64,000 nt of DNA from Dehalococcoidia bacterium (lineage in GTDB: Bacteria > Chloroflexota > Dehalococcoidia > SM23-28-2 > HRBIN24), in the NCBI GenBank assembly GCA_034435615.1, contig DAOTWZ010000034.1:4381-68380 (forward strand), read 5' to 3'. The notes beneath the pieces are model-generated. The model was not told the DNA's origin and did no database searches. It saw only the letters and a list, made by a program, of their open reading frames with translations. Both the position numbers and the translations under genes were made by a program. Shown here piece after piece: positions 5,380 to 19,817 of this stretch. Each line of letters starts with the position of its first letter. The stretch's first letter is position 1.

Positions 5380-5405
5380 TCCTCGCTTTCCTCCTTTAGA
5401 GCGGT

Positions 5406-5849
5406 CTATTCAGCGGGGGGCGCTGCCTGGCGGCAGGACTGGCAGAGGCCGTAGAACTCCAGCCAGTGCCCCTGGACGTCGAACCCGGTGCTCTGGGCTA
5501 TGTCCCGCACCAGATTGCCCACCACGCACTCGTCCAGGTCACGGACGCGGCCGCAGGTGACGCAGACCAGGTGGTGATGGTGGTGTCGGGGGCCAGCCAG
5601 TCGGTAGTGGAGACGGCCATCTTCCAGGAGGACGCGGCAGAGGACGCCCAGCTCGCACAGGAGGCGGATGGTGCGGAAGACGGTGGCCCGGCCGGCCCCC
5701 GTAGCCTGGCGCAGGATCTCCTCCACGGTGAAGTGGTCCGCCTGGCTGAGGACGGCCTCCAGGACGGAGCGCCGCGAGGAGGTGACCCGGTAGCCCCGGG
5801 ACTCCAGGGCGCTGACGATGGGCTCCAGCTCGGCCGTCTCTGATACCAT
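5406..5849 (-). CDS. zur: Fur-family transcriptional regulator (Zur-like)
   Basis: 147 aa with a His-rich HHHHH motif, CxxC...CxxC zinc ligands and Fur-like DNA-binding N-terminus. It leads the znuACB genes. Confidence 0.82.
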   Translation of the reverse strand: MVSETAELEPIVSALESRGYRVTSSRRSVLEAVLSQADHFTVEEILRQATGAGRATVFRTIRLLCELGVLCRVLLEDGRLHYRLAGPRHHHHHLVCVTCGRVRDLDECVVGNLVRDIAQSTGFDVQGHWLEFYGLCQSCRQAAPPAE

Positions 5850-5921
5850 GTCTCACTCCCTGCCTGAGATTACGATGATAGCGCCTTTCAGGGACCGGGT
5901 CAATAGGCCGGAGGTGTTTTT

Positions 5922-5951
5922 CCGGGGGGCGAGGGCCGTCTCGCCCCCCGG
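5922..5951. other. GC-rich perfect hairpin between anti-sigma gene end and zur promoter (possible terminator lacking a U-tract)
   Basis: ccGGGGGGCGAG-ggccgt-CTCGCCCCCCgg forms a 10-12 bp stem. On the plus strand it is flanked 5' by tgttttt. Confidence 0.3.
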
Positions 5952-6020
5952 ATGGGGATGGAGTGGGCCTGGCCGAGGCCAGCAGCCCATCATTAGAACG
6001 CCCGGGTAGGCCCCGTTGTT

Positions 6021-14553: not shown

Positions 14554-15017
14554 GGGCCTACCTTCTCCACCAGGGGGGCGTAGACGAAGCCGCCCCCCTC
14601 CAGGGCATACCAGAGGTCGCCCCTGCCGGCCTCCACCTCCTGTCCGCGGGCCTCGCCTATGACGCGTCGTCGCTCCCCGGGGTAGATGCCGCCCAGGAGG
14701 GGGGCGCTGGTGTTGGGGGCGGCGCGGACGTTGACGGCGTCTCTCACCGTGATCTCGAAGGGGGAGACCGGGGTGACGGGGACGTTGCCTGCCGGGGCGG
14801 GAGAGGGGGTGGGCGTGGGGGTAGGGGTGGCGGCCCCCGTCGGCGCGGGGGAGGGCGAGGGGAAGGGCGTGGCGATGGGGCTAGCGCGGCCCGGGGGCGT
14901 GGGCGTGCGGGTCTCGCTCAGGAGGGGCGGGCCGCCGTCGCCGCAGGCCATGGAGGCCAGGAGCAGCAGGCCGGCCGCCGCCCCCCGCCATGGCCAGCGG
15001 GCCCTTGCCAACCGCAT
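14550..15017 (-). CDS. lipoprotein with Pro/Thr-rich linker and bacterial SH3-like domain
   Basis: Signal plus lipobox (LASMAC), then a TPTP linker and an SH3b-like VNVRAAPNTSAPLLGGIYPGERRRV...WY segment. Confidence 0.65.
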   Translation of the reverse strand: MRLARARWPWRGAAAGLLLLASMACGDGGPPLLSETRTPTPPGRASPIATPFPSPSPAPTGAATPTPTPTPSPAPAGNVPVTPVSPFEITVRDAVNVRAAPNTSAPLLGGIYPGERRRVIGEARGQEVEAGRGDLWYALEGGGFVYAPLVEKVGP

Positions 15018-15038
15018 GCATACCTCCCCCTTTCTCGC

Positions 15039-15875
15039 TCAGCTCGGTAGGGCGGTGGCGAAGAGGAGCCCCTTGGCAAGCACCTCTCCTGCCAATACTA
15101 ACGCCATGGCGATGTAAAGGAGTCCGGTGGCCGACTGCATAGCCCGGATGCCGCTGGAGTCGTAGGCCATGTAGGTGAGGGCCAGGGGGAGGGCCAGCCC
15201 GCCGGCCACCCGCAGCCAGAAGAAGGGGCTCTGCAGGAGGGGAACGTCCAGGCCGCCCGGTATCGTCTCCCGGGGCAGGGCCAGGTTGGGCACCAGCAGC
15301 AGCCCTTGCAGCAGGAGGGCCAGCAGGACGAAGGCCGTCAGCTCCCGCAGCGGCTTCTCCGGCAGGCGCGGCGTCACCAGGTACCAGTGGCCCAGGATCA
15401 TGCCGATGGAGACGCCGCCCACGGCCAGGGCCCCCGCCACCAGGGCCAGGAGGACGCCAGCGTAGCCCCAGGTGGGCGGGGCGAAGACGCGGGCCAGGAG
15501 GGCCAGCGCCCCCAGCCCCACCAGGCAGGCTATACCGCCCACGGCGAGGCTGCTCCGGCGGTCCTCCCGCAGGGTGAGCAGGGCGTAGGGGAAGGAGAGG
15601 GCGAAGAAGGCAGCCAGGAGCACGCGGGCCGGGCCCATCTGGGCGGCGTCCAGAGGATAGCCGGCGATCTCCTGGGGCGTGGTCACCTTGGCGGCGGCGA
15701 CGAAGGTGAGGGTGGCCATCACCACCAGGAGGCCGGCGCAGAACTTGACAAAGCTCCAGGCCACCTCGCCCCGCACCTGGGTGCCCCAGAGCACCCACAG
15801 TCCGCCGATGGTGAACTCGGCCAGCACCAGCAGGACGGTGTAGGGCAGGGCATCCACGCTCATGACTGGCACCAC
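15039..15875 (-). CDS. integral membrane protein, unknown function (about 8 TM helices)
   Basis: Hydrophobic periodicity throughout; no motif recognised. Confidence 0.65.
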   Translation of the reverse strand: MVPVMSVDALPYTVLLVLAEFTIGGLWVLWGTQVRGEVAWSFVKFCAGLLVVMATLTFVAAAKVTTPQEIAGYPLDAAQMGPARVLLAAFFALSFPYALLTLREDRRSSLAVGGIACLVGLGALALLARVFAPPTWGYAGVLLALVAGALAVGGVSIGMILGHWYLVTPRLPEKPLRELTAFVLLALLLQGLLLVPNLALPRETIPGGLDVPLLQSPFFWLRVAGGLALPLALTYMAYDSSGIRAMQSATGLLYIAMALVLAGEVLAKGLLFATALPS

Positions 15876-15902
15876 CCATTATGGGAGGCCGAGGGTCAAG
15901 GG

Positions 15903-16526
15903 TCAACAATGTGTGAGAAATTTCACGAGATCTCCCAATCGACGGAAGTCGGCGAGCTGCCGCTCCCAGGGACGGTGGTTCTCCGCCCGCGGCGATGGGT
16001 GGTAAAGGGGCACTAACCAGCGGCCGTCCCAGGGCAGGAGCTGGCCCACGTGCTGACGCAGCCGGTAGGGATGGGGAGAGACCAGGCGCAGCGCCTCCAG
16101 GGCCACCTCGCCCAGGGAGACCACCAGCCGGGGCTGCACCACCTCCACCTGCGCCCTCAGCCAGCGGGCGCAGGCCCGTAGCTCCTGAGGGCGGGGCCGA
16201 CGGTTCCGCCGGCCGTCGCCAGGGTGGCAGAGGAGGGCGTTGGTCAGGAAGAGCTCTTCCCGTCGCAGCCCGGCCGCCGTCAGGAGGCGGCCGAAGCGCC
16301 GGCCCGTAGCGTCGGCGGTGAAAGGGACGCCGGTGCGAGCGGCGCCCAGCCGGCCCGGCGCCTCCCCCACCACCATGACGAGGGCGTCCGGACGGCCGTT
16401 CCCCGGCCCCAGGACGTGGACGTGAGCCACGTCCTGGCAGGCCCGGCAGCGGGCCGCCTCGCGGCAGAGGGAGCGGAAGCGCTCCCGGCGGTCGCCCTCG
16501 GCCATCGCACCGCCATTCTGCCCCAA
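15903..16526 (-). CDS. uracil-DNA glycosylase superfamily protein (family 4/5 type, Cys-rich N-terminus)
   Basis: CRACQ Fe-S-type N-terminus, GEAPG active-site motif and a HPSP motif near the C-terminus. Confidence 0.85.
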   Translation of the reverse strand: MGQNGGAMAEGDRRERFRSLCREAARCRACQDVAHVHVLGPGNGRPDALVMVVGEAPGRLGAARTGVPFTADATGRRFGRLLTAAGLRREELFLTNALLCHPGDGRRNRRPRPQELRACARWLRAQVEVVQPRLVVSLGEVALEALRLVSPHPYRLRQHVGQLLPWDGRWLVPLYHPSPRAENHRPWERQLADFRRLGDLVKFLTHC

Positions 16527-16543
16527 GGGTGCCAGCTAGTCTA

Positions 16544-16572
16544 TTGGCGCGGCGGGCGGCCGTCGTTAGAAT
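16544..16572 (+). promoter_or_regulatory. sigma70-like promoter for the radical SAM gene (TTGGCG-17-TAGAAT)
   Basis: Read directly from the sequence, in the AT-rich core of the 77-bp divergent intergenic region. Confidence 0.4.
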
Positions 16573-16603
16573 ATTTGTGCTAATCTCTCGTCGGGGGTGG
16601 GCC

Positions 16604-17842
16604 ATGGAGACGGAGGAGAAGCTACGGCTCCTGGGCGGCACCGAGGACGTGGACGAGGTGGGCGTCCCCTATGCCCGCGCCCACTCGCCCCAGATGCGTC
16701 AGGCGCCGGGGGCGGCGGGGGTCTACTGGGCGGCCGCCGGCGGCAAGCGGGTGCCCCTCCTGCGGGCCCTGCGCACCAACGTCTGCGAGCTCAACTGCCG
16801 GTACTGCGCCATAAATGCCTACCGGGATACTCGCCGCGCCTCCTTCCGGCCGGTGGAGCTGGCCCGCACCTTTATGGAGATGCACCGGCGGGGCATGGTG
16901 GCCGGCCTCTTCCTGAGCTCCGGGGTGGCGGGCGGGCCCGCCCGCACCGCCGAGAAGCTGCTGGAGACGGTGGAGCTGCTGCGCTTCCGGGAGGGCTTCC
17001 AGGGCTACATCCACCTGAAGATCATGCCCGGGCAGCCGCCGGACTACATAGAGCGGGCGGTGCAACTGGCGGACCGGGTCAGCATAAATCTGGAAGCGGC
17101 CACGCCGGAGCACCTGGCCCGTATCGCCCCGCGCAAGGACTACTGGCGCGACCTGGTGGCCTGCATGCAGGAGGTGCGGCGCCTCCAGGCCCGCTACCCG
17201 GACAAGCTGCGGGCGGGGCAGATCACCCAGATGGTGGTGGGGGCGGCCGGGGACTCGGACCGGGAGGTGCTGCGGACCAGCCAGTGGCTCTACGATGACC
17301 TCCAGATGCGGCGCGTCTACTACAGCGCCTATCACCCCGTCTGCGGCGAGGTGCTGGCGCCTCCCGTCCCCAAGCTGCGGGAGCACCGCCTCTACCAGGC
17401 CGACTGGCTCCTCCGCTTCTATGGCTTCCGCCACGAGGAGCTGCCCTTCCAGGAGGACGGCTCCCTGCCTCAGGAGGTGGACCCCAAGATGGCCTGGGCG
17501 ATGCGGCACCCGGAGCTCTTCCCCGTGGAGGTGAACCGGGCGGACGTCGCTGCCCTCCTGCGGGTGCCCGGCATCGGGCCGCGGAGCGCCCGGCGCATCG
17601 TGGCCCTGCGACGGCAGCAGCCCTTCCGGGACCTGGCCCACCTGCGGGCCGTGGGCGTCGTCGTCTCCCGCGCCCTGCCCTTCCTGCTGCTAGACGGCCG
17701 CTACCTGGCCGACCGCTCCCTGGCCCGCGCCTTCTGGGCCCAGCGGCACCGGGAGGCGCCCCGGCAGCTCGTCCTCCCCCTGGAGACGGACCCCCTGCGG
17801 GCGATGGAGCTCCTGCGGAAGGGGCGGGCGGCCGTGGCCTAG
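16604..17842 (+). CDS. radical SAM protein of the UDG-linked putative DNA modification/repair type, with C-terminal helix-hairpin-helix
   Basis: CxxxCxxC (CELNCRYC) radical SAM motif and an HhH motif (LLRVPGIGPRSARRIV). Start at ATG 16604; the track ORF starts upstream in the intergenic region. Confidence 0.85.
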   Translation: METEEKLRLLGGTEDVDEVGVPYARAHSPQMRQAPGAAGVYWAAAGGKRVPLLRALRTNVCELNCRYCAINAYRDTRRASFRPVELARTFMEMHRRGMVAGLFLSSGVAGGPARTAEKLLETVELLRFREGFQGYIHLKIMPGQPPDYIERAVQLADRVSINLEAATPEHLARIAPRKDYWRDLVACMQEVRRLQARYPDKLRAGQITQMVVGAAGDSDREVLRTSQWLYDDLQMRRVYYSAYHPVCGEVLAPPVPKLREHRLYQADWLLRFYGFRHEELPFQEDGSLPQEVDPKMAWAMRHPELFPVEVNRADVAALLRVPGIGPRSARRIVALRRQQPFRDLAHLRAVGVVVSRALPFLLLDGRYLADRSLARAFWAQRHREAPRQLVLPLETDPLRAMELLRKGRAAVA

Positions 17843-18384
17843 CCGGCGTAAGTCCAGCCGGTGACCTCGGAGGTGAGGGCGCGGCCGGGCCGCCGCACCT
17901 CTCCCCCCACCACGCGGCCTATGACCAGGGTATGGTCGCCCGCCGGGAACTCCGTCTCCACCTCGCACTCCAGCCAGGCCATGGCGGCCTCCAGGATGGG
18001 GCAGCCGGTGCGGGGGCCGGGACGGTAGGGGACATCGGCCAGCTTGTGGTAGACCTTGGCCGCCTCCTCCTCGGGGCGGCCGCTGACCTTGGCGGCGTAG
18101 TAGGGCTGGGCGAAGCGCTTGGCCAGCTCGAAGGACTCCTCCCCTAAGATGTTGACACTGAAGACGCCGGTGGCCCTGACGTTCTCCAGGGTGCGGGCGT
18201 CGTTCTCCAGGGCCAGGAGGAGGAGCCGGGGGCGGAAGGAGACCTGCATCACCCAGTCGGCCATCATGCCGTTGACATCGCCGTCCTTGCGGGAGCCGAT
18301 GATATAGAGGCCGTAGACCATCAGCTCCAGCGCTTCGGCTATGGGGTCGCGCTCCTTCTTGGCGGGGAAGTCGTGCTCCTGCAT
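17839..18384 (-). CDS. flavin reductase family protein (FMN-binding split barrel)
   Basis: Similarity to the flavin reductase-like domain (GSRKDGDVNGMMADWVMQVSF...). Confidence 0.82.
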   Translation of the reverse strand: MQEHDFPAKKERDPIAEALELMVYGLYIIGSRKDGDVNGMMADWVMQVSFRPRLLLLALENDARTLENVRATGVFSVNILGEESFELAKRFAQPYYAAKVSGRPEEEAAKVYHKLADVPYRPGPRTGCPILEAAMAWLECEVETEFPAGDHTLVIGRVVGGEVRRPGRALTSEVTGWTYAG

Positions 18385-18391
18385 GGCGGCC

Positions 18392-18889
18392 CTAGGATAG
18401 GAAGGTGAGGACGAGGGTGACGCCGCCGGCGGCCATGGTGGCCAGCAGAGCCAGATAGGCGAGGGCGCGGCCGGCTGGCAGCGGCTCCTCCGGCGCCGGG
18501 TCGTCCACCACCTCGGCGCCGTCCAGGGCCTCCCGGAACCACTCCGTCAGCTCCACGTTGGTGTAGCGGTCCAGACCATCGCAGACGCGGCCCATGCGGG
18601 CTACCGCCTGGCAGGTGATAGGGCCCCGCACCTGCTCCATCTCGTAGGCGATGATGGCCCTGAGCATCGCCTCTCGCTCCATCTCCTCTATGCCGGGGAC
18701 GCGGCCGCGGTAGAGCTGCCTCAGCTCGGCATCCCGCAGGCGAAAGATGCCGCCGCAGCAATGGCCGGCGCCGAAATCGGCGTAGAGCTCCCAGGTGGAG
18801 AAGCACTCGTAGCGCTCCAGGAGCTGCCGCTGGTACTCCTCGATGCGTCGCTCCGCCTCGCTACGGGTGATGACCCGCCGCTGGGCCAT
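18392..18889 (-). CDS. hypothetical Cys-containing protein with C-terminal TM anchor
   Basis: Clean ORF tightly packed between flanking genes; a C-terminal hydrophobic helix. Confidence 0.55.
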   Translation of the reverse strand: MAQRRVITRSEAERRIEEYQRQLLERYECFSTWELYADFGAGHCCGGIFRLRDAELRQLYRGRVPGIEEMEREAMLRAIIAYEMEQVRGPITCQAVARMGRVCDGLDRYTNVELTEWFREALDGAEVVDDPAPEEPLPAGRALAYLALLATMAAGGVTLVLTFLS

Positions 18890-18893
18890 CTCC

Positions 18894-19817
18894 TCACCTC
18901 CTCGCCTCTGCCACCAGCTCCGCCACCAGGTTGTAGTTGCCGTGGGTGGGCACCAGGTAGACGCCGGCCGTGCGGCCCGCGCAGAAGGAGATGATGTCCC
19001 GGGCTATGGCTCGCCCCTCCTGGGGGGCGTCCGGGCCGGCGCGGCGGAGACGCTCTCGCATCTCCTCAGGGATGAGCATGCCCGGCACCTCGTGGTGCAG
19101 GCGCTCAGCGTGCTCGTAGCTGTGGAGGGGTATGACCCCCACCACGATGGGCTTGCCGAAGCGGGAGGCCCGCTCCAGGAAGCGCTCCAGTCGAGAGATG
19201 TCGAAGACGTTCTGGGTGAGGAAGAAGTCGGCGCCGGCCTCCACCTTGCGCCGCATGAGCCGTATCTCGGGCTCCAGGGGGTCGGCATTGGGGTTGCAGG
19301 AGGCGCCGATGTAGAAGGAGGCGGGCCGCCCTATGGAGCGCCCCGTCCAGTCCAGGCCTTCGTTGAGGAGGCGCAGGGTGCGGATGAGGCCCACAGCGCT
19401 GACGTCCCAGACGCCGATGACGTCCCGGTAGCCGCCCAGGGAGGGGGGGTCTCCCCGGAGGCAGAGGACGTTGCGGATGCCCAGGGCGTGGCAGCCCACC
19501 ATGTCCGAGTGGATGGCCATGGCGTTGCGGTCCCGCGTCGTGTAGTGCATGACGGTCTCCATCCCCAGCTCGCGCTGGATGAGGAGACAGAGGGCCCAGG
19601 GGCTCATGCGCACGTGGGCGGTGGGGCTGTCCCCCACGTTGATGACGTCGGCCCCCGCTTCTTTCATCAGGGCGGCCGCCTGCAGGGCGCGGCGGGGGCT
19701 CAGGCCGTGGGGCGGGTCTATCTCCACGCTGACGATGAAGCGGCCGGAGGCCAGCTTCTCCCGCAGCGTGGAGGGCTGGGCGGCCACTGGCGGGTCGGGT
19801 ATGCGGGTGCTGTCCAT
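18894..19817 (-). CDS. metF: methylenetetrahydrofolate reductase
   Basis: MetF-family similarity over the full length. Confidence 0.88.
   Translation of the reverse strand: MDSTRIPDPPVAAQPSTLREKLASGRFIVSVEIDPPHGLSPRRALQAAALMKEAGADVINVGDSPTAHVRMSPWALCLLIQRELGMETVMHYTTRDRNAMAIHSDMVGCHALGIRNVLCLRGDPPSLGGYRDVIGVWDVSAVGLIRTLRLLNEGLDWTGRSIGRPASFYIGASCNPNADPLEPEIRLMRRKVEAGADFFLTQNVFDISRLERFLERASRFGKPIVVGVIPLHSYEHAERLHHEVPGMLIPEEMRERLRRAGPDAPQEGRAIARDIISFCAGRTAGVYLVPTHGNYNLVAELVAEARR

Follow-up and report, generated by a model that had tools for sequence, protein, structure and literature searches.

Do two DNA-repair genes that stand back to back across a short gap make up one repair system? The question is raised by a divergent gene pair on contig DAOTWZ010000034.1 of a high-GC Dehalococcoidia bacterium (Chloroflexota; assembly GCA_034435615.1), within the 64-kb stretch of DNA that was analyzed here and that we call the window. 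On the minus strand lies a gene for a protein of the uracil-DNA glycosylase (UDG) superfamily, and facing away from it on the plus strand is a gene for a radical S-adenosylmethionine (SAM) protein, rSAM. The original prediction, made from the sequence alone, read the two as a UDG-linked radical SAM system whose members are co-regulated from a shared operator in the gap. Our follow-up favors another answer: we think it reasonably likely that these are two separately inherited repair units that stand back to back only in a narrow Dehalococcoidia-like lineage of the Chloroflexota, with rSAM under a LexA-type operator. In other words, rSAM is probably an SOS-controlled orphan beside an unrelated UDG operon.

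The gene identities given in the original prediction hold. The minus-strand protein belongs to the UDG superfamily (PF03167, 6e-32), with VGEAPG as the predicted GEAPG motif and C-x6-C-x2-C in its Cys-rich N-terminus, and the plus-strand protein is a radical SAM protein (PF04055, 2.6e-14) with the motif CELNCRYC and a C-terminal helix-hairpin-helix (HhH) module (Table 1). The distance between their starts had been given as 77 bp (16527-16603), which is exact if UDG begins at its TTG codon and becomes 98 bp if it begins at the ATG used by gene callers. That ATG (16505) is the start chosen on five public contigs with the same rSAM protein and gene order, and the shorter, 200-aa form also fits the N-termini of UDG homologues. 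The assembly GCA_006214125.1 carries the same rSAM protein and gene order as the window. For rSAM, a GTG start at 16529 (437 aa) was rejected: its homologues begin MDxxxKLxxLGG, and the longer open reading frame (ORF) would cover the entire intergenic region.

Is the arrangement conserved? The neighborhoods of close relatives were fetched singly by their rSAM or UDG protein (loci L087-L100), and the divergent pair is retained in at least four related genomes. These comprise the locus of rSAM P0004 (79% identity; L087), which has the same synteny, those of rSAM P0006 (76%; L088 and L089), and those of UDG P0124 (67%; L094 and L095). Each gene is also found without the other. No UDG accompanies rSAM P0008 (73%; L090), P0030 (66%; L091), or P0044 (57%; L092 and L093), and these rSAM-only loci retain the flanking HD-domain and/or MTHFR genes. 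Conversely, rSAM is missing beside UDG P0166 (60%; L096 and L097), P0217 (54%; L099), P0178 (53%; L100), and P0208 (52%; L098). Farther out, we took the best 80 rSAM loci listed (38-51% identity) from a species-representative genome collection, a set that holds no UDG-fused systems, and found a UDG-like ORF within 6 kb of rSAM in 0 of the 80. A metagenome scan with the rSAM protein returned only the identical locus L086 and no new relatives. The UDG-rSAM adjacency is local synteny in the closest relatives, not a conserved linkage.

TIGR03916 radical SAM proteins, whose presumed role is DNA repair or modification, are said to occur in about a fifth of sequenced bacterial genomes and are "arranged always in operon configuration" with TIGR03915 (DUF4130), the latter often fused to a UDG domain (PMC4951493). 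The window rSAM matches TIGR03916 at 335.8 bits (E 4.2e-100), its only strong family match and one that falls 7.7 bits under the curated cutoff of 343.5. With an E value of 4e-100 and no other family close, its predicted place in this "putative DNA modification/repair radical SAM" family stands. A HemN-like (coproporphyrinogen oxidase-like) misassignment was considered and rejected, given the lack of any close rival family and a generic radical SAM fold. The original prediction had named two findings that would speak against the pair, namely an rSAM that groups with an unrelated radical SAM family and a canonical family 4 UDG found alone in relatives; we see a UDG, here family-4-like, alone in relatives, and not the other grouping of rSAM.

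The partner gene is a different matter. Using an iterative DUF4130 profile, we find DUF4130 directly downstream of rSAM in 36 of the 80 listed loci, which belong to Clostridia, Geobacter and its relatives, Margulisiibacteriota, and Thermodesulfovibrio. With the same profile, the Chloroflexi loci and the close relatives L087-L095 all come out empty, and so do the six reading frames of the 64-kb window. In a neighbor-joining tree, the DUF4130-paired rSAMs form one cluster and the window clade falls outside it, as a separate orphan lineage; orphan rSAMs without an adjacent DUF4130 gene also occur in the sampled Methanobacteria loci. The window rSAM thus shares with the TIGR03916/COG4277 family the CxxxCxxC radical SAM core, the C-terminal HhH, and a LexA-type box upstream, but it scores just under the cutoff and has no DUF4130 gene adjacent or anywhere in the window. 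Since it lacks the pairing and misses the cutoff, we treat it as a relative of the family and not as a canonical system.

What, then, is the UDG? In hidden Markov model (HMM) searches its best family is TIGR00758 (family 4), at 102 bits and below the cutoff of 125.3, while the TIGR03914/UdgX linkage domain comes third, at 84-85 bits against a cutoff of 189.95; the family scores are alike in all 23 sampled members of the UDG clade. The best match in the Protein Data Bank (PDB) is 1ui0, the Thermus thermophilus UDGA (1.4e-24), followed by the Thermotoga and Sulfolobus family 4 enzymes and then by family 5, with UdgX reached only at 3e-15. When the protein is aligned to 1ui0 and TM0511, the four [4Fe-4S] Cys, GEAPG, GVPF, TNA..C, and HPS all match, and within the clade the cluster residues C20 and C23 hardly vary and C93 and C112 not at all. 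The likeness to family 4 UDGs (T. thermophilus UDGA 1ui0, Thermotoga maritima TM0511, and Sulfolobus tokodaii UDG) extends from the best HMM and PDB matches to the four cluster Cys, GE(A/G)PG, GxPF, the Asn before the third Cys, and HP(S/A). The differences are a score under the TIGR00758 cutoff and the signatures of its own clade: GEAPGRLGAARTGVPF, three residues inserted into the C(H/N)P..GRNRRP loop, and a motif B of the HPSPR type.

UdgX/TIGR03914 (Mycobacterium smegmatis UdgX, 6ail) belongs to the same superfamily and has the same Fe-S cluster type, but the window UDG matches it far more weakly and is a single-domain protein, not fused to DUF4130. Its loop reads CHPGDGRRNRRP (consensus C(N/H)P...GRNRRP) and its motif A GEAPG, as judged by reading rather than by residue-by-residue alignment. 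The hallmarks of UdgX, a KRRIH-type loop with the covalent-linking His and GEQPG, are both missing from it. The 3-residue insertion of the clade (residues about 93-104) falls within the loop where UdgX has its expansion, and the HPSPR motif B (residues about 169-173) is nearer the family 1/3/5 form than the family 4 HPA..LR. By its sequence features, the protein is a divergent, stand-alone, family-4-like Fe-S uracil-DNA glycosylase, most likely an ordinary base-excision enzyme that removes uracil from DNA. Its clade, all of which scores under the family 4 cutoff, may be a subfamily of its own.

These assignments bear on the reading in which UDG and rSAM are a true functional pair, that is, a split, divergent version of the TIGR03916/TIGR03915-TIGR03914 system with one operator and a bidirectional promoter. 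Both proteins are of the DNA-repair type, the canonical systems fuse a UDG domain to the partner of rSAM (PMC4951493), TIGR03914 is the third-best family of this UDG, and the divergent arrangement has been kept in several related genomes. The gap is also small enough, at 77-98 bp, that a repressor bound over the rSAM promoter could hinder a UDG promoter as well. However, the UDG is nearer to family 4 than to TIGR03914, DUF4130 is absent, and each gene is found without the other in syntenic relatives; the UDG-linked radical SAM system that had been proposed is not supported. We consider a functional pair distinctly unlikely, and the control region gives further reasons.

How is rSAM controlled? 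The predicted sigma-70-type promoter reading toward it, TTGGCG-17-TAGAAT, is one of only two sites found in 15000-19000, versus 0.1 expected from shuffles, and its TTGnnn-17-TAGAAT layout recurs in L087, L088, and L094. Overlapping its -10 and the predicted transcription start is a candidate LexA operator of the Cheo type (Table 1). According to the original prediction, no GAAC-N4-GTTC box is visible here. There is indeed no exact match, but the patch holds a form of the box with 2 mismatches in the 8 core positions, GAAT-ATTT-GTGC (C to T in the left half, T to G in the right), and this form is also the window's top match to a matrix of such boxes. The matrix was built from sites of rSAM relatives, with the window and its close relatives left out (consensus AATAGAACATATGTTCTATT); in a scan of both strands of the window, 16565-16584 comes first at 12.2 bits and the runner-up reaches 2.9. 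The longer TAGAAC-N4-GTTCTA, with up to two mismatches, occurs once in the 64 kb versus 0.23 expected. An inverted-repeat finder reported nothing, the dyad being too short and imperfect for its 6-nt seed.

The upstream regions of the close relatives align in one block only, and that block is the dyad. It reads TTAGAATATTTGTGCTAA in the window, TTAGAATACATGTGCTAA in L087, TTAGAATATCTGTGCTAA in L088/L089, GTAGAATGTTTGTGCTAA in L094, and TTAGAATATATGTGCGAA in L090, and TTAGAAT-NNNT-GTGC(T/G)AA is common to them all. The half-sites AGAAT and TGTGC are invariant in the five promoters, and variation is confined to spacer bases 1-3 and the outermost flanks. Fixed half-sites with a free spacer are the signature of a spaced-dyad operator and not of a -10 element alone. 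In L094 and L095, the public rSAM call (422 aa) begins upstream of the TAGAAT-N4-GTGCTA block (L094:4905-4928), a start that is probably too far upstream.

Does the dyad belong to the pair or to rSAM? L090 carries the block without any UDG, and the rSAM promoter of L092/L093, likewise without UDG, has a perfect CGAACGCATGTTCT between TTGACG and TATGAT. For the UDG genes that lack rSAM (L096, L098-L100), we saw no box like it upstream. The candidate operator accompanies rSAM and not UDG, and the predicted shared operator of a co-regulated pair is not borne out. Spacing argues against the functional pair as well: the dyad is 10-27 bp upstream of the rSAM start in the three loci where that start is clear, whereas the UDG-rSAM gap varies from 72 to 125 bp. 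Moreover, no promoter-like site for UDG was found in the gap, where neither inspection by eye, which saw no acceptable -35/-10 pair on the minus strand, nor the automatic scan turned one up. As a separate observation, the 47-bp gap between UDG and a DinB_2 gene in L096 (L096:4954-5000) reads CGAAAAACGCAGTTCG and contains the palindrome CGAA...TTCG, whose spacer exceeds that of the Cheo box by 2 nt. This may represent an operator that has decayed or changed, or it may be fortuitous.

Could the AT-rich block be a core promoter and nothing else? It would then consist of a -10, a discriminator, and the initially transcribed sequence, with the LexA likeness a relic or coincidence and rSAM expressed constitutively. 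As a -10, TAGAAT is good, and four genomes have a TTGnnn -35 spaced 17 nt from it; the site has two core mismatches, L091 has lost one half-site, and the five genomes with the block are close relatives. On the other side, conservation continues for 10 nt beyond the -10 in the pattern of a dyad, with the two half-sites fixed and spacer positions 1-3 free, and canonical boxes stand at orthologous or near positions in L092 and in 69% of the wider family. We regard a bare core promoter as unlikely. It is very improbable, in our judgment, that the dyad serves a regulator other than LexA, one that recognizes TTAG-N10-CTAA or AGAAT-N4-GTGCT. All five genomes depart from the Cheo consensus in the same two ways and the outer TTAG/CTAA arms are conserved, so a changed specificity is possible; yet no regulator gene is conserved beside the locus, and continuity with the canonical boxes of relatives is the simpler explanation.

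Several points weigh against a LexA-controlled, independent rSAM. A 2-mismatch core turns up by chance in about half of 220-bp windows, and the weight of the window site therefore rests on the extended dyad and its conservation in five genomes. Those genomes are fairly close relatives and not independent events, and the conserved block is in part just the -10 hexamer. In one relative, L091 (66%), a single good half-site is left, and the lineage may thus be losing the site. We find no lexA, recA, other SOS gene, or second site in the window or in the loci of close relatives; the lexA and recA searches, which covered the window and all loci, used E. coli LexA and RecA sequences as queries. Beyond the rSAM promoters themselves, nothing convincing among further AGAAC-N4-GTTCT-like sites appears in the close relatives' loci. 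With no recognized UDG promoter in the gap, a protein bound 41-62 bp from the UDG start may also incidentally co-repress UDG.

The wider family provides the context in which the imperfect window site gains credibility. We examined the region from -200 to +20 of 78 rSAM relatives, with dinucleotide-preserving shuffles and 442 other ORFs from the same loci as controls. A perfect GAAC-N4-GTTC stands upstream of rSAM in 32 of the 78 (41%), compared with 0.2% of shuffles and 1.8% of other ORFs; when up to one mismatch is allowed, the count rises to 54 (69%), compared with 8.2% and 9.3%. The boxes with at most one mismatch precede 30 of 35 DUF4130-paired genes and 24 of 43 orphans. In addition, TAGAAT-N4-GTTCTA variants that double as a -10 are found in three Anaerolineae loci (L018, L021, and L031) and one Oscillospiraceae locus (L038), and this recurrence shows that a GAAT left half doubling as the -10 is a recurrent design. 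Among the window and all loci, lexA was found in L011 only, a Margulisiibacteriota metagenome-assembled genome, in which a lexA homologue (5391-5993, plus strand; 1e-27 to E. coli LexA) lies directly upstream of rSAM (about 6001). The co-directional genes suggest a lexA-rSAM-DUF4130 operon. The idea of damage-responsive control in the original prediction was a sound one, but its remark that a LexA-type box is missing was misleading.

Firmicutes and Actinobacteria use GAAC-N4-GTTC as their LexA box, and Chloroflexi have variants of it (PMC4951493, citing Fernandez de Henestrosa et al. 2002 for Dehalococcoides). The TIGR03916-TIGR03915 operon is reported to be regulated by LexA in Verrucomicrobia, on comparative-genomic evidence (PMC4951493), as well as in Bacteroidetes and Alphaproteobacteria (PMC8565304); in the literature we searched, we found no report of LexA control of the rSAM family in Chloroflexi or Firmicutes. 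The window site resembles the Cheo box of Firmicutes, Actinobacteria, and Dehalococcoides in being a dyad with a 4-nt spacer over a promoter, in fitting the matrix of its relatives, and in a GAAT left half that is also seen elsewhere. It differs in its two core mismatches, which are fixed across the window clade, and it is a predicted operator only. The fixed mismatches may make the operator weak and basal expression high, may reflect a LexA whose specificity has shifted, or may mean that the site is decaying.

If rSAM is controlled as we propose, how would the system work? LexA bound to a dyad that covers the -10 and the transcription start would block RNA polymerase at the rSAM promoter, and upon DNA damage RecA-stimulated self-cleavage of LexA would derepress rSAM. 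The protein would bind DNA through its HhH module, and the 5'-deoxyadenosyl radical derived from SAM would act on a nucleotide that carries damage or a modification. Should the operator influence UDG at all, it would do so only because the two lie close together. One could also imagine that the orphan rSAM no longer needs DUF4130 and has the head-to-head UDG as its working partner, both being LexA-repressed via one dyad in a bidirectional promoter, and to this we give only a small chance. If true, rSAM and UDG would together form a minimal repair system in split form, and with just two proteins it would offer a simple model in which to look for the substrate of the family.

C61, C65, and C68 are invariant in 21 rSAM homologues, no other Cys is, and no conserved Cys for an auxiliary cluster was found. 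VPGIGP is invariant among the homologues too, and the ComEA-related HhH structure 2duy matches the module (2.3e-4); beyond this module, no solved relatives of rSAM were found. A fold search returned generic radical SAM barrels only, led by LipA, HydG, HydE, PFL-AE, and NifB, with spore photoproduct lyase (SPL) no nearer, and gave no lead on chemistry. In the literature on TIGR03916, or on UdgX together with radical SAM proteins, we found no biochemical characterization. A 2026 preprint predicts a complex of DUF4130 and rSAM and assigns no substrate (bioRxiv 10.64898/2026.08.19.745780), and thymine modification was only speculated for the rSAM family in an earlier analysis (PMC3765255). A parallel is offered by the SplB/spore photoproduct lyase-type enzymes (COG1533), which are likewise radical SAM proteins presumed to act on DNA and under LexA control, SplB-type repair enzymes being SOS-regulated in several phyla (PMC4951493).

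Table 1. Coordinates of the divergent genes, their motifs, and the control elements around them (window positions).
Feature	Position	Strand	Details
Multi-pass membrane protein, 274 aa	15039..15863	minus	No Pfam match at E<=1; 39 bp downstream of UDG, co-directional
Promoter-like site TTGACC-17-CATAAT	15878..15906	minus	Promoter scan 10/12; overlaps UDG stop, reads into membrane-protein gene
UDG gene	15903..16505	minus	200 aa from ATG 16505; in-frame TTG 16526 gives 207 aa
Sigma-70-type promoter of rSAM	16544..16572	plus	TTGGCG (16544-16549), 17 nt, TAGAAT (16567-16572); promoter scan 9/12
Candidate LexA (Cheo-type) operator TAGAAT-ATTT-GTGCTA	16567..16582	.	Core GAAT-N4-GTGC 16569-16580
Putative G-rich Shine-Dalgarno-like stretch GGGGGTGGG	16593..16601	plus	Read from sequence; 2 nt before rSAM ATG
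rSAM gene	16604..17842	plus	412 aa, ATG start; orphan TIGR03916-like radical SAM + HhH
CxxxCxxC radical SAM cluster motif CELNCRYC (C61, C65, C68)	16784..16807	plus	Read from sequence
HhH DNA-binding module, VPGIGP	17525..17653	plus	Residues about 308-350; PF12836 HHH_3 2.5e-9

The neighborhoods offer both genes steadier companions than each other. For UDG, this is the membrane-protein gene: a 274-277-aa gene without a Pfam match lies directly after UDG in every UDG locus except L100, including rSAM-less loci at 52-60% UDG identity, and the 274-aa protein is the steadiest neighbor of the window UDG. Between the UDG stop and the next gene lies the stretch 15890-15949, and here the original prediction needs correcting. 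The divergent gap is not the only AT-rich patch, since 15890-15949 is more AT-rich (GC 0.48 versus 0.62, 60-bp windows); no other stretch of the region is as rich in AT, and the second promoter-like site lies in it. A terminator scan found no terminator in 15000-19000, and no Rfam family matches 16300-16800 at E<=1.

For rSAM, the companion is a co-directional DinB_2 gene (PF12867) that follows it in L087 (6288-6773), L088 (3318-3806), L091 (2888-3403), L092 (6260-6808), and L094 (3132-3617). In the window this gene is gone, and a convergent Flavin_Reduct gene (17839-18384, minus strand) overlaps the rSAM stop by 4 nt. The downstream DinB_2 gene is the steady partner of rSAM in the window clade, lost from the window. 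B. subtilis dinB, the namesake of the DinB_2 fold, is itself LexA-regulated, and by analogy rSAM and DinB_2 may form one SOS operon. In UDG-only loci, a DinB_2-type gene directly faces UDG in L096/L097, in L100, and possibly in L098. The L100 case (L100:4987-5000) is extreme: just 14 bp separate the divergent UDG and DinB_2-like starts, and TAGAAT stands 6 nt ahead of the DinB_2 ATG, a layout that implies leaderless transcription and promoters inside the neighboring coding sequence. Because promoters can lie there, the UDG promoter of the window cannot be placed from the DNA sequence alone.

Other DNA-repair genes occur near these loci. In L087 (8975-9924), an EVE-domain gene and a Pyr_excise gene, encoding a T4 endonuclease V-like pyrimidine-dimer glycosylase, adjoin the MTHFR gene, and the EVE gene is also present in L094, L095, and L098. 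These genes add to the DNA-repair character of the neighborhood. Among the rSAM relatives, one ORF directly downstream of rSAM encodes a deoxyribodipyrimidine photolyase (TIGR00591, 1.5e-160); its locus may be L057 (7610-9019).

For the window itself, the outcome is mostly a correction: these are ordinary repair genes, one of them with a probable weak SOS operator. Local synteny can be enough to bring a UDG gene next door, and such adjacency should not be taken for the canonical linkage. A broader by-product is the strong enrichment of boxes across the Cheo-box phyla, together with the partner-less branch, a modest extension of published work. The orphan Chloroflexota branch indicates that the DUF4130 partner does not appear to be required for the rSAM family. 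The boxes before 41% of the sampled Chloroflexi and Firmicutes relatives (69% with one mismatch) extend the SOS link to the phyla that use GAAC-N4-GTTC, and this enrichment strengthens the case that rSAM acts on damaged DNA.

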